From positions 1-43,897 of the IMG/VR virus record IMGVR_UViG_3300027419_000009: 43,897 nucleotides of DNA; one strand, given 5' to 3'. Positions 10,874 through 42,901 of this stretch are shown one piece after another (the stretch's first letter is position 1; each line of letters begins with the position of its first letter). This DNA is from a virus. Its lineage: Duplodnaviria > Caudoviricetes. The notes under the pieces were generated by a model. That model saw only the letters and a list, made by a program, of their open reading frames with translations. It was not told the DNA's origin and did no database searches. The position numbers were made by a program, and so were the translations under genes.

Positions 10874-11029
10874 TTAATTGTTCAGCGTGAAAATTATACC
10901 GATGATAGTAAAAAGGATTGAGGGAATTAAAATAATAAACCAGCCTGCATTTACAAATTTTTCCATCTTTAGATAGATCAATAACATCTGAACCATCAAA
11001 ATGATTGTAACCATCAAAACATTTGCCAT
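10874..11029 (-). CDS. Small two-TM membrane protein, holin-like (51 aa)
   Basis: Not in ORF track: MANVLMVTIILMVQMLLIYLKMEKFVNAGWFIILIPSILFTIIGIIFTLNN; AGGGGG RBS; fills the gap directly before the endolysin. Confidence 0.7.
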   Translation of the reverse strand: MANVLMVTIILMVQMLLIYLKMEKFVNAGWFIILIPSILFTIIGIIFTLNN

Positions 11030-11032
11030 TTT

Positions 11033-11353
11033 TTAATCCCCCCTAATCTCATTTTTTTTAGCTGTTTCAGTAACATAAAGATTTTTCCAATATGCAGCCG
11101 ATTCTAAAAGCTGTTTCATTCTTGCCGGTGGAACGGCATAGTATCCAGAATATTCCCCGGAAGTTATTTTTTTTATCACCATATCCGAGGGGATAATGAC
11201 AACCTTAGTTTCCGGCTGTTTTATCTGAACCGTCTGAGTTACAATCGGAATTTTCGGCGCCTTGACTGTTATCAGGCTTGTCGCACAGGCTGTCAACAAT
11301 GCTATTGAGATCATCAACATTGTCAGAATTAATAGCTTTAGAAATATCTTCAT
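11033..11353 (-). CDS. Lipoprotein, o-spanin-like (106 aa)
   Basis: Signal peptide with lipobox LLTA-C, Pro-containing linker, C-terminal helix; overlaps the upstream membrane gene by 149 bp within the lysis cassette. Confidence 0.6.
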   Translation of the reverse strand: MKIFLKLLILTMLMISIALLTACATSLITVKAPKIPIVTQTVQIKQPETKVVIIPSDMVIKKITSGEYSGYYAVPPARMKQLLESAAYWKNLYVTETAKKNEIRGD

Positions 11354-11636
11354 TTTTAATAATCTCCGGTTCTGTTTTCTCTGGTTCTATCTCAATATTA
11401 TCATCACCCGGTTCTATTTTACCTGTTTTAAAAAAGGATAGTGGTATTTGGGTTGGGGAAAACCATGCCCGGATAATCAAAAATATCAATGGCTGCAAAG
11501 CTGTAACCAGTGGGAAAAGCCAAGCAGGGGCGTGTATAAACCCCTGCATTGACAAAATAAATGAGCAAATACCAGAAATGGTTAGCAGCGTTCCGATGAT
11601 CATATAACGAGATTTATACACTGGTTTTTTGTTCAT
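11205..11636 (-). CDS. Membrane protein (2 TM plus acidic tail), holin or i-spanin-like (143 aa)
   Basis: 'MNKKPVYKSR' holin-like N-terminus, two hydrophobic helices, D/E/N-rich tail overlapping the lipoprotein gene. Confidence 0.6.
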   Translation of the reverse strand: MNKKPVYKSRYMIIGTLLTISGICSFILSMQGFIHAPAWLFPLVTALQPLIFLIIRAWFSPTQIPLSFFKTGKIEPGDDNIEIEPEKTEPEIIKNEDISKAINSDNVDDLNSIVDSLCDKPDNSQGAENSDCNSDGSDKTAGN

Positions 11637-12175
11637 TATTTTTTCACCTTGAATAAATTTATGACCCCCTGAATTGTGTTTTCCAGAAGGTTCTGGGTAT
11701 CAAAACAGAGAATCTTTTTGACGTTTGCACCTGCCCCAGCAAATCCACCCATCTTACCGGATGAATCAACGGCTCCACCTATTTCAGCTGAGGGCTTTAA
11801 TTTGGCAATCTTAATATCTATATCCTCACGACAGGGACTATATGCAAGTGATCCAGTAAAAGTGTCTGGCTTGCTGACTACCCAGCCTACGCGAGCCTCT
11901 AAATTTACATACTCTAATGTCTCAGGCTGATAAGAGTATAAAACATATTCCAGAGTCGAGTTGAATCCCTCAACCGGGTTATCGTTCCCCCAGCCATAAA
12001 TAGTAGAAAATCTAATTCGGCTGGAATCATTGGCATAATCAGTGGTCGCCTTGGAAAATTCAGTAGAAGCATCATCGTAGATATTACTATCAGTAGTATT
12101 ATCATTCGATTCAGAATAAGAGAACTGAAAAGCAAAAACTGAAATTACAATTGATAGAATAAATAGTTTTTTCAT
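11636..12175 (-). CDS. Secreted beta-rich protein, possibly outer-membrane
   Basis: Probable ATG at 12175 (AGGTGGTG RBS); signal peptide MKKLFILSIVISVFAFQFSYS; alternating beta-strand segments. Confidence 0.6.
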   Translation of the reverse strand: MKKLFILSIVISVFAFQFSYSESNDNTTDSNIYDDASTEFSKATTDYANDSSRIRFSTIYGWGNDNPVEGFNSTLEYVLYSYQPETLEYVNLEARVGWVVSKPDTFTGSLAYSPCREDIDIKIAKLKPSAEIGGAVDSSGKMGGFAGAGANVKKILCFDTQNLLENTIQGVINLFKVKK

Positions 12176-12204
12176 TTGATTCACCACCTTTTTTACGATA
12201 TAAT
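12176..12204 (+). promoter_or_regulatory. Plus-strand sigma70-type promoter
   Basis: TTGATT (12176-12181), 17 bp, TATAAT (12199-12204). Confidence 0.65.
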
Positions 12205-12210
12205 TAATTC

Positions 12211-12277
12211 AGTTGATTTTTTCTCTTTCAATTATAGCCAGTTGTCGGCTTCCCCCTGACAGCTGGTTATTTTTTTT
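12211..12277 (+). ncRNA. Candidate ~65-nt small RNA
   Basis: Bounded by a plus-strand promoter and a plus-strand intrinsic terminator; no ORF; 5' arm complementary to several early-gene start regions. Confidence 0.6.
12234..12277 (+). terminator. Plus-strand intrinsic terminator
   Basis: TAGCCAGTTGTCGG-CTTCCCC-CTGACAGCTGGTTA then T8; 14-bp stem with three G.U pairs that form only on the plus strand. Confidence 0.8.
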
Positions 12278-12509
12278 ACTTTATAAATCTTGGGAGAAAA
12301 ATTGTTGCCAGAAATCCAAGGAACGAAACAACCCCTGATATTGCCAGTGAGCAACCCATGATCTTAGATTTCCATGCGTTGATAGAACCGATTTGCGTTT
12401 TTAGTTCCGCAACATCATCAAGCAATTTTTCAATCTGAGCTTCCGACCATCCTTGATACCGACCCTGCTTTATACCTTGTTCAAAGTCTTCTTTAGTCAT
12501 ATTTGCCAT
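12276..12509 (-). CDS. Coiled-coil plus C-terminal TM protein, XhlA-like holin candidate (77 aa)
   Basis: Heptad segment IEKLLDDVAELKTQIGSI followed by TM helix and basic tail; first gene of the lysis cassette. Confidence 0.65.
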   Translation of the reverse strand: MANMTKEDFEQGIKQGRYQGWSEAQIEKLLDDVAELKTQIGSINAWKSKIMGCSLAISGVVSFLGFLATIFLPRFIK

Positions 12510-12558
12510 AATTCCTCATTCCGACATTTTACAACAATGCCCTGCTAGAATGAAACTA

Positions 12559-13080
12559 TTAATCTACTCTAACCCATTTATTATTAGGCTTATATTCAAC
12601 CCATTTTATAAAATTAAATAAAACAGACAGAGAATCATTTATAAATTTTCCCTCAAAATTAATATACATCCCCTGACTATCAAACTCATGATCTTTATAC
12701 TGGAAACTAAATACTGGACTGTTTATATTGAATGAAGGATTTACAATAGTTTCAACTGCATAGGGTTCAATGAGTATCGGATATCTTTCTACATTCAGCG
12801 TAGTAATAATATCAATGATTATCTGTGTCGAATCATTATCAAAATAAATATTTTCAGTGGTAGAAATATTTTGATAAAGATATTTATAGGCAGTTGCCCC
12901 TTGATAGGTAAAAACGCAACTGGCAGAACCTAAAACATTATAAATATCATCATTGTTCCATATTTCCATGGCGTTTAAGTTGCCCCTGATATTCACCCCG
13001 TTTACTGTGGTATCAAGATCGAAAGCCTGACAGCCTGATAAAAATAATGAGACAATCAAAACAAGTAATGTTTTTTTCAT
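12559..13080 (-). CDS. Lipoprotein (about 173 aa), possible superinfection-exclusion or receptor-blocking protein
   Basis: Probable start 13080 (AAAGGGTGGTG RBS): MKKTLLVLIVSLFLSG-C lipobox; AT-rich; adjacent to the fibre-like gene. Confidence 0.65.
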   Translation of the reverse strand: MKKTLLVLIVSLFLSGCQAFDLDTTVNGVNIRGNLNAMEIWNNDDIYNVLGSASCVFTYQGATAYKYLYQNISTTENIYFDNDSTQIIIDIITTLNVERYPILIEPYAVETIVNPSFNINSPVFSFQYKDHEFDSQGMYINFEGKFINDSLSVLFNFIKWVEYKPNNKWVRVD

Positions 13081-13096
13081 ATCATCACCACCCTTT

Positions 13097-14482
13097 TTAG
13101 TCATATTTTCCAAATATCTCAAAACCATAATAGTAAACAGCTGTGGCATCTCGGTCTGTCTCTATCCATATAAAATATGTTTTATCAGAAGATAATAATA
13201 TTTTGTTTTGGCAAATTAATTCAAACGTTGGGGTAGTCCCAAAATTGGATATGCAGGTTGCAACTGTTTGAGTATTTATTATCTGTAGATCAGTCTGAAC
13301 TGATCCCTCATTTCTTTGACATACACGATAAAAAGTAGTTGATATGTCAGACGATCTTCTAACTTTCGATAAGACAGATGTAATTGAAAATGTTGAATTA
13401 TATAACCTACTAGGTATATCTATAATACATAAAGCGGTTGATTTTGTAACTGAAGATGAAAACCAAAATCCAAAATCAGAGGCTTTTGATATAGATCCGG
13501 AATATTGTTGAGCGTTTGATGCCGGAATGTATTTAATAAATGATGTTTCACTTGAATGGGTTAATTTGGCAGTTGTATCTATAACTAAATTTTTGCCATT
13601 TGGTATTTTAGTAGTATTATAATTTAGGCTTAATAATACACCATCCGCGCCATTAGCCCCCCGGATATACAGCTCATTGGAGCTTCCAGTTATCAGGTCA
13701 AGATAATTTCCATAGCTATATGATTTTAAAGCCATTCCCCTTCCAGAAGTATTTTTAAGAACCGCCAAGCTATCAGCATTTTTACTTGTAATTGTCTGGC
13801 AAGAAAATGTTGAATCAATAACCAGAGAATCGGTAATGATAATCTTAGAACTTTGCGCGCTGATTGTATTCCAACAAGTTTGATTGCCAAGGCTGGACTC
13901 ATACATATATATGCAGGAGACATTTGACCAACTGCATGGGTCCGTAAATGCCTCGTCATACCAATATAAATCAGTGATGTAACCGGTTTCCCATATAATT
14001 CCAGCGTTGGTATAACCCATATCTGGACCGGGCATATCACCATACCATTCATTTTTGGATATATTGGATGTAACCCAGCCGTTTCCCCCAGGTGTTTGTA
14101 AAAATCCTAAAAATTGAATTCCATTCATACCATGCTCGGTATCAATGGCATGAGCGAGTTGTATATCTGCATAATCACCGTCAATGACTGTTACAGATTC
14201 GGTAGTAATTACATATGTAACTCCAATATTTTCATAAAGTTCAGAGTAAACCTTTAACGCAACATTGGCAGTATCAGGCTTCCATGATTGTGGGACACTT
14301 ACCATTGACCACGGGATTGCTGAATCTTTACCCCACAGATCAGCGGCAGCATTTATATTGATTCTATCAGTTGAATCAGTTGCAGAACCAACCGACAGGC
14401 TTTCAAATCTGCCCGGAGTAAGGCAAAATGCTTGACCAATGATGAAATATATAGACAATACTAATAAGCTCTTAAATCGCAT
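13097..14482 (-). CDS. Tail fibre-like protein with N-terminal signal peptide (461 aa)
   Basis: MRFKSLLVLSIYFIIGQAFC signal-like N-terminus; S/T/G-rich beta repeats; C-terminal beta-sandwich-like domain. Confidence 0.55.
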   Translation of the reverse strand: MRFKSLLVLSIYFIIGQAFCLTPGRFESLSVGSATDSTDRININAAADLWGKDSAIPWSMVSVPQSWKPDTANVALKVYSELYENIGVTYVITTESVTVIDGDYADIQLAHAIDTEHGMNGIQFLGFLQTPGGNGWVTSNISKNEWYGDMPGPDMGYTNAGIIWETGYITDLYWYDEAFTDPCSWSNVSCIYMYESSLGNQTCWNTISAQSSKIIITDSLVIDSTFSCQTITSKNADSLAVLKNTSGRGMALKSYSYGNYLDLITGSSNELYIRGANGADGVLLSLNYNTTKIPNGKNLVIDTTAKLTHSSETSFIKYIPASNAQQYSGSISKASDFGFWFSSSVTKSTALCIIDIPSRLYNSTFSITSVLSKVRRSSDISTTFYRVCQRNEGSVQTDLQIINTQTVATCISNFGTTPTFELICQNKILLSSDKTYFIWIETDRDATAVYYYGFEIFGKYD

Positions 14483-21930: not shown

Positions 21931-22170
21931 ATAGAGTATCAATACACTAAAGATAGAGTATCTATACTCTATCGTAAAGGCTTTATATTCTTTACTTATT
22001 CTTTACTTATTCTTTACTTATTGCAGTGTGGGTATCTATACCCTATTTATACAGTATTGATAGAGTATCTATAGAGTATTTAAGTTTAATAATTTAAATA
22101 TTATAAGTAAATTTTATTATCTAAGATCTAGATATAAGAATAGGGTATAGATAGACTATCCATACCCTAT
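21931..22170. repeat. Origin-like iteron array B (inverted relative to array A)
   Basis: 9-mers at 21931, 21953, 21964, 22038, 22049, 22060, 22071, 22140, 22151, 22162 (11-bp period); (CTTTACTTATT)x3; AT-rich 22080-22140. Confidence 0.8.
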
Positions 22171-25883: not shown

Positions 25884-26358
25884 GCGCTTTAAGAATCAGA
25901 TCAGCCAAAGACAGCCCCTTTATATTATTATCGATCTCCTGCCGGTCTGCCCAATTTTCGCGATCCCTATTTTTAAGCCAGAATATACAGGCGGTAACAT
26001 CCGGGGAAACATGTTTTTTTGTAATCTCTTGTCTTACCTTCTCAATTTTTCCTGAGCGGTCTTGAATGACTTTCAATTCCTCATACTCATAGCCTAAAGC
26101 CCGTTTATAGAGTGATTCGACTACTTTTTTATCAGCCTCTTTTTTCCCTGCGCTTAACGATTCAAAAAATTCAGGGTGCGCCTGTTTCCATTTATCAACG
26201 CATTCAGCCGAAACCCCTAAAACATGGGAAATATCTTTATCTGTTAATCCCACCTCATATAATTTTTGAATCTTGGTCAGGTCAATCTTATACTTAAATT
26301 CTTTTGTTTTGTATTTACCTATTTTGGGTCTGACCCTCTTTTTTTTGATATCTGTCAT
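25861..26358 (-). CDS. terS: Terminase small subunit
   Basis: HTH N-terminus; 'VVESLYKRALGY' and 'PDVTACIFWLKNR' motifs; directly upstream of terL. Confidence 0.85.
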   Translation of the reverse strand: MTDIKKKRVRPKIGKYKTKEFKYKIDLTKIQKLYEVGLTDKDISHVLGVSAECVDKWKQAHPEFFESLSAGKKEADKKVVESLYKRALGYEYEELKVIQDRSGKIEKVRQEITKKHVSPDVTACIFWLKNRDRENWADRQEIDNNIKGLSLADLILKAHDEKKSK

Positions 26359-27212
26359 TTTTTATATTCCTCACTGATAATCTTAGGGACAGCATTTTTC
26401 CAATTAATTTTATGATGGATTCGGCGCTGTGTAGTCCCCATCATCCGAATTTTAACACAAGATGGATTATACATGACTGTGTAAAAAGATTTTATATAGG
26501 TTCCAGAATCTAAATAGGTTCCGGTCATTCCCCCTGATTGCTCTTGTGTCTGCCTTTGGACAATTGATATATACAAAATAGAAAAAAAGACAAATCCTTT
26601 ATTCCCTAATTTTATATAGGTGTTTACATCTTCATTGATTCTCCCAATGAATTTAAAAGGTCTTTTTGTTGAGCAAAAAAAGGAATTCATTGCCTTCCGT
26701 CTTGGTATTCTTTTGTATGAAGTTGTCCCGGAAGCCCCACCCATATAATCCCCACCCTGTGCAAACGCTATACTGGAAACATTTATTTTTTTGTAATAAT
26801 TCAGCGTAAGTTTAAAAACATCATCTAAACTCTTTACATCTTTTGCCCCGAAAATGAATCCTTTTTTATATTTATACTCAAACGACTGATAGTCGTCATC
26901 CAATTCAATAAAATATTCATACCCTAAACTCTCAGCAATATCAAAACAGGCATTACGGGCGTAAATGATTGTCCTTCTGTCCTTGAAATTATCTCCCTGA
27001 TCAAACTTTTTAACTATCGCTGACTTGGAAAATTTAATGACATGATCACCATATTTTTTTATATATTCATCACCTGTTTTATCTTCATCATCAATAATCA
27101 GATAAATCTCTCCGGTATAACCGCGATCCCTTAGAGTCTGATATGTCGTAACCCTGTCAGGTCTGCCATGAGTGAGGATAAAAACAATATAATCCCATTT
27201 CTTTTTATTCAT
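26355..27212 (-). CDS. GT-A fold glycosyltransferase, TAGT / GREB1-like (predicted DNA base modification)
   Basis: 'FILTHGRP', 'ARN', 'ELDDDY' (DxD), 'RKAMNSFF', 'GRINEDVNTY', 'GGMT..Y' motifs; probable ATG 27212. Confidence 0.75.
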   Translation of the reverse strand: MNKKKWDYIVFILTHGRPDRVTTYQTLRDRGYTGEIYLIIDDEDKTGDEYIKKYGDHVIKFSKSAIVKKFDQGDNFKDRRTIIYARNACFDIAESLGYEYFIELDDDYQSFEYKYKKGFIFGAKDVKSLDDVFKLTLNYYKKINVSSIAFAQGGDYMGGASGTTSYKRIPRRKAMNSFFCSTKRPFKFIGRINEDVNTYIKLGNKGFVFFSILYISIVQRQTQEQSGGMTGTYLDSGTYIKSFYTVMYNPSCVKIRMMGTTQRRIHHKINWKNAVPKIISEEYKK

Positions 27213-28005
27213 TTGGATAATCCTTTTCAGCCAGATCAAGGATATCATTTGTAAGTTCTACATATCCAGCTTCAATTGCCTTGTCGTAATCAATAATGAC
27301 CAGTGCCTGATCTTCCATAAGCCCCTGTAATTCTTTCCCAGCATGGGCATAATATTCAGCAATACTGGCAAAATCTAAAACGATATGCCTGGTAGCCGCC
27401 AGTTTTAAAAAGTTCTTAATATCTTCTGGAAGCCCAGAAGATTCAATCCTTTTTATTATCTGTAAATATTTATTGTCATCATATAAATCAGCCAGATCAG
27501 GATTTTCTCCTGTAATCTCATAAACAGGAGTATTGATTTTTGTCGTATAAGGCTGATCTCCTGAGCGCAGATGATCCATAAACTCTTTCAAACTTTTAGA
27601 ATCATAACCGGTTAAGCTCATGTTTAAACCAGTTTCCTGAAGTTGTTTCATCAACTCTTTCAATTTGGATTGATTCATATTAGCCAGTTCCGCAATCCGG
27701 TTATCTGCTATTAGATCGGCTGTTTCAAGCTCAGGAGAATCATAATCTTGAAAATCTACTGGTATTAGTTCTACCCCCAGCTCTTTGAGAGCTTCGAGCC
27801 TTCCATGACCGCGGACAACCAATCCTGATAAATTTGAAACGGTTACAGGACAGCGAATCCCTGTTTCCCTGATAATCTCAGCCAGCAATTTAATTTGTCT
27901 TTGAGAATGACCATTAGGATTTTCCGGATTAGGTTTTATCTTAGATACAGGAATTAATTTGTCATAAGCGCATTGAATTTTTATACTACTTTTATTTTTC
28001 GGCAT
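27205..28005 (-). CDS. ParB/Srx N-terminal domain fused to an uncharacterised helical domain
   Basis: 'KPNPENPNGH..QI..L..II...G...PV.V....VVRGHGRLEALKELG..IADNRIAE'; C-terminal 'FLKLAATRH..F..IAEYYAH..LMEDQALVIID'. Confidence 0.8.
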   Translation of the reverse strand: MPKNKSSIKIQCAYDKLIPVSKIKPNPENPNGHSQRQIKLLAEIIRETGIRCPVTVSNLSGLVVRGHGRLEALKELGVELIPVDFQDYDSPELETADLIADNRIAELANMNQSKLKELMKQLQETGLNMSLTGYDSKSLKEFMDHLRSGDQPYTTKINTPVYEITGENPDLADLYDDNKYLQIIKRIESSGLPEDIKNFLKLAATRHIVLDFASIAEYYAHAGKELQGLMEDQALVIIDYDKAIEAGYVELTNDILDLAEKDYPNE

Positions 28006-29302: not shown

Positions 29303-30060
29303 TTTGATTTTTCCTCACTCAATCTTGAGATTGTGCCTAATATTCTGGCGTTTATTGATTGAAGTTCTTCTATAGCCTTAACTTCCAGACTATTCTTAAG
29401 ATCACAGAACCTGTAATAATCATTTACGTTTTCTATCCCAAATTCAACCAGCAACTTCTTAAACTGAGATAGGCTTATATTTTCATTTTCCAGCCTTTTA
29501 TTGGCTGTCCTTAATTCCTGACAATATGTATTTAACGCTTTTTTAATCTTCCCTGAAACAGCATGACCTAATAACCTATGATCATTACGTTCAGCCAGCA
29601 ATCGTTTATAAAATTCATATTTACCTTCATTTTGAAATTGATTCTTTGATTCTACAACCCGACTCATTAAGATATATTGATATAAAGATTCTGGAATATT
29701 ATTAGTCCTACGGGCAGCTTGCTTCTTTTTAATCAGCCTTGTCCCTTTTGATGTAACCCAATATAAACCGGCTTCGGATGGCAGCTCATTTACATCTATT
29801 AACCCATTAGGACAAACAAAATAAAATTCATGGCAATAATCAAGATAATTCTGCCATTTTTTATCATTGAGGAAATCACTACGGGAAACTTTTATCTCAT
29901 ATCCTTTTATGACCATTTGAGACCATGACCTGGGCATAGCCCAATAATCAAGACGATAATGATTATTCATCCAGGTTGTCCCGGTCTTGACCTCTGATAG
30001 GGAGAAATCATCTTTATGCTTTTGTTTTAGAAGTTCAATAATTTGTTTTGAATTTATCAT
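29287..30060 (-). CDS. MmcB-like PD-(D/E)XK protein
   Basis: 'EVK..RLDY..GYEIKVSRSDFLND.KW..Y..YC..FYFVCP' motif. Confidence 0.8.
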   Translation of the reverse strand: MINSKQIIELLKQKHKDDFSLSEVKTGTTWMNNHYRLDYWAMPRSWSQMVIKGYEIKVSRSDFLNDKKWQNYLDYCHEFYFVCPNGLIDVNELPSEAGLYWVTSKGTRLIKKKQAARRTNNIPESLYQYILMSRVVESKNQFQNEGKYEFYKRLLAERNDHRLLGHAVSGKIKKALNTYCQELRTANKRLENENISLSQFKKLLVEFGIENVNDYYRFCDLKNSLEVKAIEELQSINARILGTISRLSEEKSKWKKV

Positions 30061-31535: not shown

Positions 31536-31902
31536 TATTCTGATCCTCGATTAAAACAGAGAAGCCTTTTAGTATTTTTGTTAATATCCCATGTGCCGGG
31601 ACTGCATAAACTCTTTTATTAGGTGGGTATTTACGATGATCTAGCCCGTTATCAAGTTCAGCTTCCTCACGTGAGAAATAGACAGCCTCAGTTCTCCATG
31701 TCTCCCAATATTCGCTTTCCTCTAATTGCTCAATGCTGTCATAATCTCCATCAATTTGATTTTCGCAATCATGATCATGATCACCACAGCAATCATAATC
31801 TTCATTTCTAGGATAAAGTTCTCTCACCTGATAAAGAAATATAGGATTTTCGAGGGCTTCTTCCCATTGGACATCTTTTCTCTTTCTTATTGGAAAATTC
31901 AT
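31528..31902 (-). CDS. Hypothetical acidic protein
   Basis: ORF in operon; CCGDHDHDC cluster. Confidence 0.65.
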   Translation of the reverse strand: MNFPIRKRKDVQWEEALENPIFLYQVRELYPRNEDYDCCGDHDHDCENQIDGDYDSIEQLEESEYWETWRTEAVYFSREEAELDNGLDHRKYPPNKRVYAVPAHGILTKILKGFSVLIEDQNNG

Positions 31903-31987
31903 TTTTTATATCCTTCCCCTTCCGCAATGCTTTTTATTTTTACCGGTTTCAATTTTAACTTCAATCATTGTTTTAATTGTTTTCATA

Positions 31988-34877: not shown

Positions 34878-35617
34878 TTTTTTATCTCCCGATGATCAGG
34901 ACCGACTACATTAAAAATTTCTGAAACTTCTACCAGCCTTGAATAAATCCTTGAATTACAAGATAGTTCCTTTTTATTTAAATTCGATGTTAAAAAAGTT
35001 GATTTCATGTAATTGTATCTATGATTTATCAGAGAATAAATTTGCTCGTTAACCCATTCTGAATCTTTTTGGGTTCCGTAATCATCAATGATTAGTATGT
35101 CAGCGTTTTTACAGGTATTAATAAGCTCATACCTGTCCTTATTTTCTATATTCCTGAGATAGTCAAAATAATCATTGAATGATATGTATTTTAGATTTAT
35201 ATTTATCAACCGCCGTAGAATTAGCTTGGCAATTATAACTGTGGCAGTGGTCTTTCCTGACCCAGTGTTTCCAAGTAAAACCAACCCGTTTTTTTTGTTC
35301 TTAATGTCGTATTGGGTTGAATAACTTTTTATGAGATTTACAATAGGATCATCCGGGGAATATAAATCTAAATTCAGGTCAATAAATCTCGGTGGGATAT
35401 TCGATTTTAGAAGTCTAAAATTGATAGCCTTCTCATTGTTGCATTTGCATGGATGGTATAGCCCTAAACGGTAATCATCCCATACCATACCCTCACCATC
35501 ACAATAAGGGCAAACGCTATCATCAATATTTGATTTATTACTGATAGTATTTTTAAGATCGAGTAATTTCTGTTTTAGTTCGGTCATTTGTGCTTCCCCA
35601 CAAGTTTTCGTTAGCAT
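34874..35617 (-). CDS. DnaC/IstB-like helicase loader ATPase
   Basis: CPYC..C.C zinc motif, Walker A GNTGSGKT, Walker B LIIDDYG, 'TSN', 'RIYSRL'; alternative start 35587. Confidence 0.9.
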   Translation of the reverse strand: MLTKTCGEAQMTELKQKLLDLKNTISNKSNIDDSVCPYCDGEGMVWDDYRLGLYHPCKCNNEKAINFRLLKSNIPPRFIDLNLDLYSPDDPIVNLIKSYSTQYDIKNKKNGLVLLGNTGSGKTTATVIIAKLILRRLININLKYISFNDYFDYLRNIENKDRYELINTCKNADILIIDDYGTQKDSEWVNEQIYSLINHRYNYMKSTFLTSNLNKKELSCNSRIYSRLVEVSEIFNVVGPDHREIKK

Positions 35618-36374
35618 ATGATTTTTTCTGATTAGAATTTATTGAACTGAGTATTAAAATAAATCTGTCATCGCCCTTTCCAGTTTTTCCCCTCAATGCT
35701 GACGGAGCGGTAATCCTATCATTCCACCACCAACCTGAATCATTTTCCGCGATCTTGGCTATGACCTTATCTAAATCCGATAAGTTCCTTTTATCTGTGT
35801 CTATGATCCCGTGGAAATCATGCGCCCATGTTTGTAGATTGGGAGTTTTCAGGGAAGGGAATTTTGCAACTAATATTTCCTTAAATTTTTTAGCATAAAT
35901 GAAATGCGTTGAATCTACAAGATATACCGGCTTTTTTTTAGTCTTCAGTTCTTCAATCTCAACATCTGGAATATCATCATGACTGATTTCAATTCCACCG
36001 GATTTTATTGATTTTAAAAGTATTTCCTTAAATTCTTTTGTTTTGATCAGCTCTAAATCCTTATTAAACCTAATAGCGACTTTTGGAGATCGAGAGTAAT
36101 TGTTTTTAAGCCAATTGACTATAAATATTTCATTGTTTTCTTGCGAATATATAACCCTTTTTTTTGATTGAAAATATCTTATGGCTTCCTCAATTTCCGG
36201 GACTTTTAGTCCGGTATGAAATGAAACAGTGGTTAGAGATATTTCATAAATTCCAGTCTGTGTTGTCTCCGGATTGGTTATTAGGTAAATGTAAATCAAT
36301 TTTTGTTCGGGAGTCAGTCCCTGAATGAATGTGTCTGTCCAAAATTTAGTTTGAAGTGTCCTATATAGAGCCAT
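35553..36374 (-). CDS. Replication initiator (replisome organizer, wHTH N-terminus)
   Basis: 'YR..QT.FW.D..LTPE.K..Y.YL.TN..T...GIYEI..HTG..NW.K.N..SPKV'; C-terminal 'PNLQTWA.D..D.R..W...I..P..LR.K'; adjacent to the loader. Confidence 0.85.
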   Translation of the reverse strand: MALYRTLQTKFWTDTFIQGLTPEQKLIYIYLITNPETTQTGIYEISLTTVSFHTGLKVPEIEEAIRYFQSKKRVIYSQENNEIFIVNWLKNNYSRSPKVAIRFNKDLELIKTKEFKEILLKSIKSGGIEISHDDIPDVEIEELKTKKKPVYLVDSTHFIYAKKFKEILVAKFPSLKTPNLQTWAHDFHGIIDTDKRNLSDLDKVIAKIAENDSGWWWNDRITAPSALRGKTGKGDDRFILILSSINSNQKKSYANENLWGSTNDRTKTEITRS

Positions 36375-36493: not shown

Positions 36494-37897
36494 TTAAAAT
36501 AAGGTGGAATCATCTTCATGATCGATTGATTTTTTAATAGGAGTTCCATCAATTTTTTTTACCTCACCGCATTCAAGGTAAATCCCAACCTCACCGGATT
36601 CATCAACCCGTTCAGCCCAAATCTGAAAATCATTTTTTTCAGCAATTTCTTTAATTGCCTCAAGATGATCATTATCAAGTGAATTAGCGTCATCAATCCG
36701 CATGATCCTTAGATCTGGATTCAATGCTATTTTTACTGATACTGCAATCTGGATTTTCTGGGCAGTCGAACATTGCTCTAATGGAATCTCGTTAAAGGTA
36801 ACCCCTGCGCTGGAAAATCCTAAACCACTCACAGGAAATTGAGTGTTGGAAACTAGATTATCTTTATATCCTACAATTTGTTTTTCTTTTTCGACCAAAG
36901 AATCCATTATTAGCTGGTCTTCTGCCAATTGCGAACGCAATGATTGTAATGTGATCCATTGGTCTGCTTTCTGATTTATTGAATCAGCATTATTGATTTT
37001 ACTATCTATGTCAGTAAAATCAGGGTCAACCAAATCAACAATTTTTTCAAATTCATTAGAAATTTCTTTAGACATTAAAGATAAATCTTTATCTTGCCTG
37101 CTAGCTTCATCTTTAAGAATTGACAATTCATTTTGCAGTTTTTCTATAGAAATATTAAGTTCTTGCAGTTTTTTTTCATTTGCTTCATAAGCGACTTTTT
37201 TTAGTTTCAAAATATCACGCTTAGCATTGTTATCGCTAACGATTTCTGCCAATTTTCTACGATCGTTGAATAATCCGGATACTGAAATCTTTTCCGTTGG
37301 CTCAACTTCACCCATAAGCTCTATTGATTTTTTACGCAGATCAATAGATTTCCTTATTTCCTGCTGATCCCGTTTTATTTTTTGAAATGCCTGATTAATA
37401 ATTTCAATCGGATTGTCAGTTTCAATATTGGATTCAGATATTGATTCCAGATATTTTTTATCAGGGTTGAAATTGGTTATTTTTAACAAAGTCCCAACCT
37501 GATCTTTTTTGTCTTGCCTGAGAAATTCCAATGGATCAAAGGTGTAATTACCCCAAAGTTCATCGAGGATTTTCTGAGGTGTTGCATACTTCCCCCGTTC
37601 ACCGGTAACGGTCAGATAGCTTCCCTTCTCTGTGATTTTCCGAGAGACTACCAGTCCATTAGATAGAGTTATTTCTATCTCGGCGGTTTTCTGCCCGGAA
37701 TGAATCGGCATTTCCGGTATGTCCTTTTGACCGCCAAGCGCATACCATATTGAATCAATCAGAGAAGATTTGCCTGAAGCATTTTTTCCGGTTACCTGGA
37801 TTAAAGGGTTTTCCCCTAAGTTGTCCAGTTCGACAACTTTAATATTCTTGATATTTCTAACCAGTAGCTGAATTATTTTTACGTTTTTATTTTCCAT
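36494..37897 (-). CDS. SMC/Rad50-like coiled-coil ATPase (AAA_23 type)
   Basis: Walker A TGKNASGKSS, long coiled coil, degenerate signature CSTAQ, Walker B/D-loop RIDDANSLD. Confidence 0.85.
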   Translation of the reverse strand: MENKNVKIIQLLVRNIKNIKVVELDNLGENPLIQVTGKNASGKSSLIDSIWYALGGQKDIPEMPIHSGQKTAEIEITLSNGLVVSRKITEKGSYLTVTGERGKYATPQKILDELWGNYTFDPLEFLRQDKKDQVGTLLKITNFNPDKKYLESISESNIETDNPIEIINQAFQKIKRDQQEIRKSIDLRKKSIELMGEVEPTEKISVSGLFNDRRKLAEIVSDNNAKRDILKLKKVAYEANEKKLQELNISIEKLQNELSILKDEASRQDKDLSLMSKEISNEFEKIVDLVDPDFTDIDSKINNADSINQKADQWITLQSLRSQLAEDQLIMDSLVEKEKQIVGYKDNLVSNTQFPVSGLGFSSAGVTFNEIPLEQCSTAQKIQIAVSVKIALNPDLRIMRIDDANSLDNDHLEAIKEIAEKNDFQIWAERVDESGEVGIYLECGEVKKIDGTPIKKSIDHEDDSTLF

Positions 37898-37935
37898 TGA
37901 TTTTTTCCTTTTTTAAAATAAGGGTAAAGACTGGA

Positions 37936-39072
37936 CTATATAAGCCCAGGCATATCATCGCTTTGTTCTTCGGCTAACAATGGGTCAATATCATCATTTG
38001 ATTCAGTTTTGTGATCCGGTATAATCTCAACCTCAATATCTGGAAGATCAGTTTCGGGTAGATTATCCAAAATGTATTGTTCCATTCTGTCCAAAATCTC
38101 TATCGCCCATTTGTCCTGATTAATTTCATTGATTGACTTCGCAATGTAAATTTTACCGTTTTTGGGAGATATTATTTTTGAAAATTCCTGATAGATTTCA
38201 GCCTCGGTTTTGATGATATTCCGAGTCTTATAAATATCAATGATTTCCTTAACAGCATTGGGTATTTTGGTCTTTAATTCTTCCGATTCATCCTTGATAA
38301 ACTCAGGAGTATCAACCGGCTTTTCATCATCAATAGGAGCCGGAATAACAGCATTAGCTGGTATCATAGGAGTAAACCCGGCAGCTGATTCTATCAGGTT
38401 AGTTGCGCCACCTCTTATTCTATTAATAAAAGACGGGTCAACCGTATTTAATAAAATCTTAGGGACAAAATGAACCTGTTTTTTTCCCTCGTGATGGGTT
38501 TCAACTTGTGTCATTTGTAGGTCAAGGACTATTGAAGAAAACCGACCGCATAATCCTTGAACGTAATTCAGCCCATCCATGATTGATTTCAGTTTCATGA
38601 CTGACCCGGTATCAATCTGATAAACTCCCCCGTAATTGACCTCTGGAAGGATAACCAAAATATGACCGCGTAATGAGCAATCGCCATTGTTAAACTGTGG
38701 ACAATTGTCATAACATTTTATTTTAGGATCAATGGTTTCCACTGGAACAAAATTAAAATTTTTATCCCTGCGATATGCCCTCACCCCGTCTCCATAACAT
38801 TTAAGTCCTGCCCCCGAACCATACCATTTGAAGCTGTGAGGCATTAAAAGGCTGAGATTTTCAACGGGGAATAAAACCTTAATGGACTTTGGTTTTTCCC
38901 CGTATATTCTCTGAACCTCTGGCGGGCAAACAAAATAATCAGTTTCCGCTGGGTATTCCTTACCTTTGGCAGATAGCTTTTTAATCCCCAGCCGGATTTT
39001 TCCCAATCTTGGAAGCATCGGATCATTAAAAAGTCCTGGTATTTCATTGATTTTTTCTCTTGGTTTAATCAT
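37936..39072 (-). CDS. Gp3-like (recombination directionality factor-like) protein, probable recombination / ssDNA-annealing role
   Basis: 'LPRLGKIRLG.K......YP...DYF', 'C.GDG', 'GGVYQIDTGS' motifs; lies between exonuclease and ATPase. Confidence 0.7.
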   Translation of the reverse strand: MIKPREKINEIPGLFNDPMLPRLGKIRLGIKKLSAKGKEYPAETDYFVCPPEVQRIYGEKPKSIKVLFPVENLSLLMPHSFKWYGSGAGLKCYGDGVRAYRRDKNFNFVPVETIDPKIKCYDNCPQFNNGDCSLRGHILVILPEVNYGGVYQIDTGSVMKLKSIMDGLNYVQGLCGRFSSIVLDLQMTQVETHHEGKKQVHFVPKILLNTVDPSFINRIRGGATNLIESAAGFTPMIPANAVIPAPIDDEKPVDTPEFIKDESEELKTKIPNAVKEIIDIYKTRNIIKTEAEIYQEFSKIISPKNGKIYIAKSINEINQDKWAIEILDRMEQYILDNLPETDLPDIEVEIIPDHKTESNDDIDPLLAEEQSDDMPGLI

Positions 39073-40206: not shown

Positions 40207-40367
40207 TAAAATTTCCCCCTTGTTTCGACAATAATAATGGCAGAGATCAAAACCAGAATCAAAGCAATTAAAAAGGATACAGCCTTTAAAAATCTAGACT
40301 TTGGTTTTTCAAATCTACCAGATAATGGATTTAAGATCCATCTCGATTGATTATTTTGTTTTTTCAT
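40206..40367 (-). CDS. Small membrane protein (53 aa)
   Basis: Not in ORF track: MKKQNNQSRWILNPLSGRFEKPKSRFLKAVSFLIALILVLISAIIIVETRGKF; GAGG RBS; TAATG coupling to the exonuclease. Confidence 0.6.
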   Translation of the reverse strand: MKKQNNQSRWILNPLSGRFEKPKSRFLKAVSFLIALILVLISAIIIVETRGKF

Positions 40368-40566
40368 TATTGATTTTTTCCTCTTTCTCTATATGTAATC
40401 GAATAACCATGTTTACCCATTGATTAGGTTTCAGTCCAGTCGCTTTAAGTTTAGGAACAATTTCCGACTCCCAATAATCCTTGTTCACTCGGAGCCATAT
40501 GTAATGATTTTTCTCAGGATTTATTATTTTGGGTCTCCCCGGCTTCCTCTTTTTTTTATCAGTCAT
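40351..40566 (-). CDS. Small DNA-binding protein (GRPK plus RHH-like)
   Basis: Probable ATG 40566 (AGGGGGTG RBS); 'KPGRPK..IWLRV..G....QWV..VI'. Confidence 0.65.
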   Translation of the reverse strand: MTDKKKRKPGRPKIINPEKNHYIWLRVNKDYWESEIVPKLKATGLKPNQWVNMVIRLHIEKEEKINNEKTK

Positions 40567-40948: not shown

Positions 40949-42883
40949 TTAATATTTATTTCCCGTCTGTTTCCAATATTTCTTTAATATCCTTTTAGCC
41001 AATTTCGCTTGGCGCTGGGTAAGGCTGGGCAACAATGCAAGTTCTTTTCCTATGCAGGTGTCAATTTTATTGAACCCCATATCATTTTTTATATTGGCAT
41101 TGTCAAAATCAAGCCCTGCTAATAATCGCAAATCGGTCTGAATTTTGGAAATCAATTCAGGAGATAAATCCGGCTCACTGTCCCAATCTGTTTTTTTAGT
41201 CTTATGAAATTCCGATTCTTCAGCGTGATAAACAAAATCATCTTCATCCTTGGATGGTTCAGCCTGCATTTTTAGATCATTGGGGTTTATGCAGTCTAAA
41301 GCCCGTTCTATAATCTCCTGTTTTTTAATCAGCTGTTTAGAAATCTTAATATCTATTGAACCGTCTAAAACAAGATGATAAATATTTACAGCGTTTTTTT
41401 GACCTATCCTATGGCATCGATCTTCTGCCTGTATCATGTTTCCAGGCGTCCAATCCAATTCACCGAATATAACATTAGAAGCCTTGGTTAGTGTAAGTCC
41501 CACCCCGGCAGCCTGAATTGAACCGATAAAAACCTTCACGCTATCATCATTTTGAAATCTGTTAACTGATTTATTTCTATCTTCAAGATTCATTTCCCCG
41601 GTCAGTTTAACCGCCTGATCCGCAAATTCTTCTTGAAGTGAATTAATAACATCATGATGATGGGCAAATATAACGACCTTATCAGTTGACTCTAAAAGCT
41701 CATTTACATACTCAACCATCATCGGAACTTTTTTTATTGCAGTCTGGTATCTCAGTTTCGCCAGCATGGTAAAGCTGGCATTGATTTCTGAGCGCAATTT
41801 TTCAACCGCCGCCTTATAAGCTGAATCATCATCCGACAGCTTAGATATTTCAATTTCTGCCTTGATCTTGGTTATCAGCTCATGATTGAAGCATGAATTT
41901 TCTTCAGCTAATTCTTTTTTCAACTCTTTGGTTTCAACCGGGAGAATTACAACCGACCGGCGTTTTTCTGGCAGCTCTTTTAATACCTCAGATTTCAGCC
42001 TGCGGACATAATATCTTGATCGGATAATAAACTGCAATTCTTCCAGATTAGAAGCCCCGGAATCATCTATTCCATATTTAGTTTGCTTCCCATCACAATA
42101 ACGCATAACAAACTTGAACCAGTTTCCAAACATATCCGGGTCAACTGATTTAAGCATTGTGTAAATCTCTTTAGGGCGGTTTAGTATTGGCGTTCCAGTC
42201 ATAAAGATTTTTCTTTTACCAGGAATAGCCAGCCCTATCTTTGAGCGGATGGCTTTAGCTGATTTCATTTTGTGAGCTTCATCAAAGATGATTAAATCCC
42301 AAGCGTTAAGATTCAGATCATCCTTAAACTTGCTCAGAATATCATAGTTGATTATTTTAATCCCCTCAGTCTTGAGCTGATCCGGATTGCTGATAATATC
42401 TATCTGGTAGGGGTCTATAATCCATTTCTCAGCTTCAGACTGCCAGTTATATTTTAAGCTGGCTGGGCATACTACCAGAATGCGGTCTAAATCAGCTCTA
42501 AACAGGTTAATATAACCTAAACCTTGGATTGTCTTACCTAATCCCATTTCATCGCATAGCAGGCAATTAGGTCTCCCTGCCATGTATTCTATCCCTGCCC
42601 TCTGATATGGCAGATAGGCTAAACCTTCCGGAGCCGGGACTTGAAAATCAGATGATGATTTCATTGAATCTTCGATTGTTGTTTTTTCGGCGGTCTGAAT
42701 AAGGTTCAATGACTCTAAAGCCGACCCGTTGAAAAATTCTTTTAGTTTTTCGGCAACCTGACTATTAGTTGTTTCCCAGCGTTTTTCTTTAACATTCCAG
42801 CGGAATCCAGCTTCTTTAGGTGTAAACCGTTCCTCGTAACTTGATATGCAGTAGAATAATCCTTGTTCATAACAGACTTGCAT
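40949..42883 (-). CDS. SNF2-family helicase (SMARCAL1/HARP-like)
   Basis: DEMGLGKT, VCPASL, DEAH, TGTP, GVGLTLT, QAEDRCHRIGQ. Confidence 0.92.
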   Translation of the reverse strand: MQVCYEQGLFYCISSYEERFTPKEAGFRWNVKEKRWETTNSQVAEKLKEFFNGSALESLNLIQTAEKTTIEDSMKSSSDFQVPAPEGLAYLPYQRAGIEYMAGRPNCLLCDEMGLGKTIQGLGYINLFRADLDRILVVCPASLKYNWQSEAEKWIIDPYQIDIISNPDQLKTEGIKIINYDILSKFKDDLNLNAWDLIIFDEAHKMKSAKAIRSKIGLAIPGKRKIFMTGTPILNRPKEIYTMLKSVDPDMFGNWFKFVMRYCDGKQTKYGIDDSGASNLEELQFIIRSRYYVRRLKSEVLKELPEKRRSVVILPVETKELKKELAEENSCFNHELITKIKAEIEISKLSDDDSAYKAAVEKLRSEINASFTMLAKLRYQTAIKKVPMMVEYVNELLESTDKVVIFAHHHDVINSLQEEFADQAVKLTGEMNLEDRNKSVNRFQNDDSVKVFIGSIQAAGVGLTLTKASNVIFGELDWTPGNMIQAEDRCHRIGQKNAVNIYHLVLDGSIDIKISKQLIKKQEIIERALDCINPNDLKMQAEPSKDEDDFVYHAEESEFHKTKKTDWDSEPDLSPELISKIQTDLRLLAGLDFDNANIKNDMGFNKIDTCIGKELALLPSLTQRQAKLAKRILKKYWKQTGNKY

Positions 42884-42901
42884 TGATTTTTTCTCCCCTC
42901 T

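Follow-up and report, generated by a model that had tools for sequence, protein, structure and literature searches.

Trans-acting bacterial sRNAs of the RybB/MicA type recognize their targets through a seed. Among phages, the c4 antisense RNA of P1 and P7 (Rfam RF01695, PMC2864571) uses its loops to pair with phage mRNA, so that ribosome-binding sites are partly occluded (PMC5320573, PMC8201110). Lambda OOP, P22 sar, lambda aQ and PAK_P4as15 are described as repressing the gene that they overlap, OOP and aQ from their own promoters, and VpdS and PreS as Hfq-bound RNAs that act largely on host RNAs (PMC12197685). The phage RNAs treated in the accessible parts of these sources either repress a single gene, be it overlapping or regulatory (OOP, sar, aQ and c4), or act largely on the host (PreS and VpdS), and in the part of the literature covered, in its main texts, we found no phage sRNA that represses several early genes of its own phage. 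The start-associated sequence (SAS) of cluster K mycobacteriophages is described in PMC3203893 as a 13-bp, SD-containing motif with 11–19 copies, asymmetric and in one orientation just before the starts of non-structural genes, and that source left open whether its partner is RNA or protein. Cluster A mycobacteriophage stoperators are also asymmetric one-orientation repeats across the genome (PMC9283540), and they are DNA sites for a repressor protein that need no complementary RNA unit.

We analyzed a phage genome of 43,897 nt (the whole stretch, here referred to as the window) and focused on a plus-strand unit at positions 12176–12277, in which promoter-like boxes, a plus-specific U-tailed hairpin and complementarity to distant gene starts in excess of chance are observed. 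We are inclined to the view that this unit makes a 67-nt trans-acting, multi-target sRNA that would damp the translation of six genes of the replication region. The sequence feature is real, and its interpretation as an sRNA is likely, as a prediction. A trans-acting sRNA is characterized by an accessible seed that is imperfectly complementary, beyond what chance would give, to several start regions not linked to it, and the predicted seed shows this.

By analogy, the mode of action is probably like that of P1 c4, although the unit is not a c4 member. c4 is a phage-encoded small RNA with exposed loops that pair with phage mRNA at ribosome-binding sites; for the unit, an open loop and complementarity to phage mRNA are predicted. 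Membership in RF01695 was rejected, as there is no covariance-model match at E≤1 and the predicted fold has two hairpins, whereas c4 has three stem-loops with a' and b' loops (PMC5320573). Moreover, c4 is cut by RNase P from a precursor and controls an antirepressor operon, whereas the unit resembles a primary transcript, bears its seed at the 5' end and would address six effector genes. At the level of pattern, a short antisense-strand unit with its own putative promoter and terminator opposite genes recalls the OOP/sar type. Membership there was also rejected for want of a perfect target overlap; the unit fills the 100-nt gap 12176–12275, and 12211–12277 touches only one stop codon. OOP, sar, aQ and PAK_P4as15 pair with one overlapped gene, whereas the unit overlaps a gap and matches distant genes imperfectly. 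With the RybB/MicA type, VpdS and PreS it shares a short 5' seed, a U-tailed terminator and several imperfect start-region targets; VpdS and PreS act mostly on host RNAs, whereas all the targets predicted here are the phage's own. Like the SAS as described in PMC3203893, the tag matched by the seed is asymmetric, in one orientation and within a few nucleotides of non-structural starts, but it is a different motif with five exact copies. It occupies the A-rich spacer beside the SD, has 4–6 looser copies with two in coding sequence, and has its complement in the 5' arm.

Genome organization

A 127-nt terminal overlap closes the window into a circular unit of 43,770 bp with a GC content of 36%, and its completeness is rated 100%; the phage genome is complete and circular, at about 43.8 kb. 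All 60 selected genes lie on the minus strand, in agreement with the earlier note, and no plus-strand ORF is longer than 118 aa. Structural and envelope genes occupy about 2–28 kb, and replication/recombination genes about 28.7–43.7 kb. We infer that the latter block is early, because twin promoters (11/12), at 1997 and 540, aim at it over the circular junction. The former, TTGACA-17-TATATT at 1969–1997 on the minus strand, is a likely early promoter and the twin of 512–540, and it would likely drive the target-holding operon across the junction. The regions around the twins (482–570 and 1939–2027) are 76% identical over 89 nt and have a common A-rich upstream element.

The operon that holds the targets also encodes, at 40351–40566 on the minus strand, a 71-aa protein assigned with high confidence as ribbon-helix-helix (RHH, CopG/Arc-like), a candidate transcription repressor. 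It scores a TM of 0.54–0.68 to RHH-type models and has a basic N-terminal arm, with no match in PHROGs, Pfam or NCBIfam. Its presence weakens an earlier proposal that the sRNA replaces a missing protein repressor. As for a stoperator-type repressor, the genome has this RHH candidate and no HTH_3 protein.

The unit is flanked by two minus-strand genes. At 11636–12175 lies a 179-aa ORFan with a signal peptide, which is outer-membrane-barrel-like with leads to PagL/PagP below 0.9. At 12276–12509 lies a 77-aa holin-like ORF, whose C-terminal hydrophobic segment was recognized by eye and whose stop codon overlaps the U tail; it has no match in PHROG, Pfam or NCBIfam. Both flanks had been described as lysis-cassette genes; the barrel-like protein is not clearly a lysis protein. 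Close by, 12559–13149 is a lipoprotein-like ORF, a secreted ORFan among lysis genes like the 179-aa one, and the overlapping 11205–11636 and 11033–11353 are spanin-like by eye.

Several other features of the genome were recorded. The two largest gaps contain a pair of 148-nt arms (2008–2155 and 21953–22100), 78% complementary and about 19.8 kb apart. Each arm has three 11-bp repeats in tandem, with short palindromes on either side, and a role as origins, late promoters or inversion sites is conceivable. Glucosyltransferase-like and ParB-like genes at 26355–28005 adjoin the terminase small subunit, which suggests a DNA-modification module. Ribosome-binding sites are stereotyped in this genome generally, and a second such site, GGAGATAAAAAA, occurs three times, before the ATG of three early genes with starts at 1594, 33504 and 34877; of these, 33504 is the likely start of the 33011 ORF. 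These three starts and one other are complementary to a stretch immediately upstream of the 540 promoter.

The plus-strand unit

The sigma70-like promoter match TTGATT-17-TATAAT (10/12) reported earlier is present on the plus strand at 12176–12204, and its -35 box runs into the beginning of the 179-aa gene on the minus strand. It is the best among 12 promoter-like matches in 11000–13500 (shuffles yield 10.4), and genome-wide 12 plus-strand sites, this one included, reach at least 10/12. Taken alone, the promoter is unremarkable and at chance level (12 found versus 10.4).

Placing the start by the -10 box predicts a 67-nt RNA at 12211–12277. Its 5' seed arm (12211–12233) had been described as unpaired, which the predicted fold contradicts, since 12211–12216 pairs with 12228–12233 in a weak 6-bp stem around an 11-nt U-rich loop (12217–12227). 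The loop itself has an unpaired probability of 0.98–1.0, and opening the stem costs about 1.9 kcal/mol.

The arm is followed by an intrinsic-terminator-like hairpin with a U tail (12234–12277, plus strand; 15 bp, three G.U pairs, loop 12249–12255). The earlier reading of 14 bp plus T8, with three G.U pairs formed only on the plus strand, is one of two ways to read 12234–12270, the other being 15 bp plus T7. The energy is -20.5 kcal/mol on the plus strand and -12.8 on the minus strand, a difference of 7.7 kcal/mol that is due to the three G.U pairs. Among 159 T-run hairpins (131 plus and 28 minus) it is the strongest at -20.7, followed by -18.2 for the best minus-strand one and -13.5 for the next on the plus strand. 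Being the strongest plus-favoured T-run hairpin in a genome transcribed from the minus strand, it points to a plus-strand transcript that ends at 12234–12277. The 67-nt fold has z = -6.7, and 0 of 200 shuffles were equally good. The loop is CTTCCCC; the 8-mer quoted earlier as the loop overlaps it, but two of its bases belong to the stem, and its complement has six occurrences on the minus strand. The whole window gave no Rfam match at E≤1.

Complementarity to the starts of replication genes

The perfect matches to the arm listed in the earlier note are exact: 42883–42895 (13 nt), 40370–40380 (11 nt), 39047–39061 (15 nt), 37897–37907 (11 nt) and 35619–35629 (11 nt). The first four belong to longer predicted duplexes, all on the minus strand. 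In the SNF2 helicase gene, 42882–42898 forms 17 contiguous pairs, four of them G.U, over the SD, spacer and AUG (-18.5 kcal/mol). The ribosome-binding site of a 53-aa membrane ORF (40369–40387) forms 18 pairs with a 1-nt bulge (-19.7), codons 4–9 of the Gp3-like gene (39046–39061) form 16 pairs (-18.3), and the SMC/AAA-like ATPase gene forms 13 contiguous pairs over its ribosome-binding site and AUG (37896–37908; -14.3). With G.U allowed, each of the four duplexes acquires one such pair at sRNA base 12212. Two minus-strand sites are additions to the earlier list, namely the leader and SD of an HD-type phosphohydrolase gene (29304–29324; 20 of 21 nt paired, three G.U, -20.7) and the early codons of a 124-aa ORF (31873–31886; 14 pairs, -17.0). 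All six target genes are within the replication region, spread over 14 kb. They match different parts of the arm, and their deviations are mostly G.U-compatible or a bulge. In the Gp3-like target, the observed codons have a probability of 0.01 given the peptide, and the peptide is absent from the family consensus.

The leader of the DnaC-like loader gene (35593–35629, minus strand) is a doubtful target, combining the 11-nt arm match with a loop-complementary SD at 35593–35599. The gene probably starts at 35587, because this start has its own SD and the PHROG match begins at residue 12. The exact match at 35619–35629 then lies 32–42 nt upstream, probably outside the start region, and the count of perfect matches falls from six to five of 59. 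The terminator loop has GGGGAAG as its exact complement, and this sequence is present in only two start regions, those of 31902 and 35587, with an arm match near both; in the 124-aa ORF it is the SD itself (31913–31919). This co-occurrence may be taken as a lead for two-site pairing. A further loop match had been noted at the ribosome-binding site of the exonuclease gene: AGGGGGAA before 40206 is exact, but such a pairing is weak evidence.

The core GAAAAAATCAA occurs five times on the minus strand and never on the plus strand, against 0.26–0.80 expected. Three of the five exact 11-mers have their end no more than 3 nt from a start, with none on the other strand. All six copies of AAAAAATCAAT are within 36.5–42.9 kb, two of them inside the SMC-like gene and away from starts (36525–37333, minus strand; at 36525–36535 and 37323–37333).

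Comparison with chance

A perfect complement to the arm of at least 11 nt is present in 5 of 59 other gene-start regions, or 6 of 59 with the original DnaC start. Five hits were reached by none of 20,000 column-permuted sets of start regions, none of 8,000 with the revised starts, and none of 9,000 position-specific Markov sets (0/37,000 for the pooled start-composition nulls). Shuffled arms reached five hits in 13 of 20,000 trials, and in 38 of 20,000 when the A6 run was kept. The non-self matches number eight on the coding strand and zero on the opposite strand; six of the eight are in start regions, which make up 8% of the genome, or five after the DnaC move.

With the original start list, three windows at 12211–12213 alone rank top among 43,770. 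Under the revised starts the arm shares its count of five hits with two copies within the SMC-like gene, which have neither promoter nor terminator. The seed begins at the predicted +1, and of 96 plus-strand promoter-like sites only this one is followed by five hits. In a blind pipeline the unit came first among the 23 terminator-like sites of the window. The same pipeline was applied to 23 distant phage records, drawn from 41 and two of them slightly below full length, where 365, 69, 9, 6 and 1 of 450 terminator-like sites have 0, 1, 2, 3 and 4 hits, respectively. The single 4-hit site is antisense to a real start, and all sites with at least three hits lack a promoter.

The energies gave a less sharp separation, and the duplex energies are modest. 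When accessibility was included, the top 7 of 59 starts were all in the 29-gene replication/early set (hypergeometric 0.005). A lenient energy model put the arm in the top 0.8–2.6% of windows; it accepted helices of any length, which inflates the null, and was replaced by duplexfold on composition-matched windows (1,826 used of 2,963 eligible). Ten of the 1,826 equal the six-site energy sum and one equals the fourth-best duplex, and the competing windows are complementary to real ribosome-binding sites. A genome scan found 42 non-self coding-strand sites at or below -13 kcal/mol, with eight in start regions, including five of the top eight. Three non-coding-strand control sites fell at -17 to -20, so the two new targets (HD hydrolase and 124-aa ORF) are individually within chance. 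In a hub test over eight sites the arm was best by a narrow margin, -119.7 versus -116.3, and pairing in the sRNA direction was better than the reciprocal at five of seven sites, the reverse holding at two.

Search for relatives

No close relative that would allow seed/target covariation to be followed was found in the collections searched. The exact hairpin pattern had no hit in viral contigs, and the arm pattern found only the window's own record in metagenome contigs. Five loci with a -10 box plus the seed pattern carry one motif copy each and were judged to be chance. Locus searches with single proteins gave none, none and one at 26%, and in blastn the unit had only matches at E≥1 among 50,697 phage records. 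Among 10 proteins looked up, nine are in one-member clusters and one is missing from the collection. None of 159 distant Gp3-like loci (80 + 79, alignment-based) has two GAAAAAATCAA copies, the seed or the RNA. The best protein identities are about 27–47% in most searches, with short segments up to 55%: 45% for the top match of the Gp3-like protein, 27% for the capsid, 47% for SNF2, and at most 42% among 150 matches for the SMC-like protein.

Alternative explanations

A trans-acting, multi-target sRNA, as proposed in the earlier note, is the best-supported reading, because the match counts beat the start-region nulls, the seed lies at the predicted +1 and the deviations are G.U-compatible; it stays a prediction. 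The same motif may instead be a tag for a protein, GAAAAAATCAA(T) being bound either as DNA (stoperator-like, perhaps by the RHH protein) or as mRNA (T4 RegA-like). We consider this unlikely; it would make 12213 a fifth site, with an unrelated hairpin beside it, and would place that copy in the leader of the 179-aa gene. It agrees with the common coding-strand orientation of all five copies including 12213, with the confinement of the six AAAAAATCAAT copies to 36.5–42.9 kb with two inside a gene, and with an RHH protein encoded among the targets. The inverted repeat TTGA-N11-TCAA is also carried by both 12213 and 29304, but it occurs five times, within the 1–7 seen for other spacings, and was rejected as an operator for being at chance level. 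A protein tag leaves unexplained why the 12213 copy sits at the +1 of an antisense promoter, before the strongest U-tailed hairpin. Nor does it account for targets that match different arm parts with mostly G.U or bulge deviations, and no promoter match of at least 10/12 overlaps the target sites. On this last ground the motif was also rejected as the -35 box of antisense promoters. A CRISPR-type guide was rejected too; Rfam gave no CRISPR family, and a single Cas-like match belongs to a Cas4-domain exonuclease, an enzyme common in phages.

The unit may also be purely local, although the chances of this are small. As a cis-antisense RNA or as a convergent terminator it would then attenuate or sever the late message, at a point after the holin-like gene and before the envelope/lysis genes that follow, and the seed would be a leftover ribosome-binding site resembling those of the early genes. 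Over the 100-nt gap, the RNA is perfectly complementary to the late message (-29.3 for the arm alone), and on the coding strand the seed resembles an SD with an A-rich spacer. Layouts of an anti-ribosome-binding site with a hairpin exist in other phages, and an antisense RNA to an endolysin gene is reported for PAK_P4 (PMC12197685). Against this, no opposite-strand ORF begins at the seed and the RNA leaves the SD of the 179-aa gene uncovered. Moreover, the matches are only on early-region genes, two of them inside coding sequence, where a ribosome-binding-site remnant predicts nothing. The remaining explanation is chance: a strand-biased genome rich in AT, whose ribosome-binding sites are A-rich, could produce a U-rich tract, a pair of promoter-like hexamers and several matches that have no function. 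This seems to us very improbable. The GC content of 36%, the abundance of promoter-like sites, the 0.8–2.6% of the lenient energy null and a locus chosen after the fact are all in its favor, but the start-composition nulls (0/37,000 at five hits), the hairpin z of -6.7 and the 0 of 450 terminator-like sites elsewhere with five hits speak against it.

Proposed mode of action

If the unit does make a trans-acting sRNA, a host sigma70-type polymerase would transcribe it as soon as infection begins. Pairing would nucleate between the open U-rich loop (12217–12227) and the A-rich spacer beside a start codon, the weak 6-bp stem would open at a cost of about 2 kcal/mol, and 13–20 pairs would come to cover the SD, the AUG or the first codons and keep the 30S subunit from loading. 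A second contact, with GGGGAAG SD sequences, may be made by the C-rich terminator loop. Accumulating RNA would act as a threshold or timer and cap the SNF2 helicase, the Gp3-like protein, the SMC-like ATPase, the HD hydrolase and two small proteins, alongside the RHH protein and not in its place. Late mRNA that runs through the locus is perfectly complementary to the RNA and could titrate it.

Matches to an integrase, a resolvase or HTH_3 (PF00589, PF00239 and PF01381) are absent from the complete genome, and a role in lysogeny is not supported by these three negatives. Because an integrase is absent, a lytic timer or dose cap, or control of a plasmid-like carrier state, is likelier than classical lysogeny. 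A bolder and rather doubtful version is an RNA-only developmental switch and immunity factor, in which one 67-nt RNA would time replication and recombination and be silenced by late mRNA. In such a switch the 5' loop might, at similarly long odds, read a tag at six or seven gene starts while the terminator loop grips some of the SDs.

A stand-alone RNA directed against the phage's own replication/recombination proteins would, if true, be an sRNA regulon inside a phage genome. It would also suggest concretely how start-associated motifs work, as Pope et al. 2011 did not settle what their partner is (PMC3203893). The unit is short, and ordinary reporter fusions would suffice for a direct test of its predicted pairings; a phage with no known relative or host makes a weaker test case than conserved examples.

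Related elements in other phages

Two elements of other phages were noted. In the cluster K phages Anaya (L225:29870–29882) and Adephagia (L226:14682–14694), the only SAS copy in reverse orientation forms the open loop of a conserved hairpin between genes. A related stretch is present in 135 records, with two-sided changes at 6 of 33 predicted pairs across six sequences. In SirPhilip the loop is changed and the tags are unchanged, so that loop/tag covariation failed; the hairpin is a candidate anti-SAS RNA. In a distant phage (L170, G021), the plus strand has a promoter-like site, a start-antisense window with two further matches and a weak terminator-like hairpin at the T-run 17132, possibly a cis-antisense unit.
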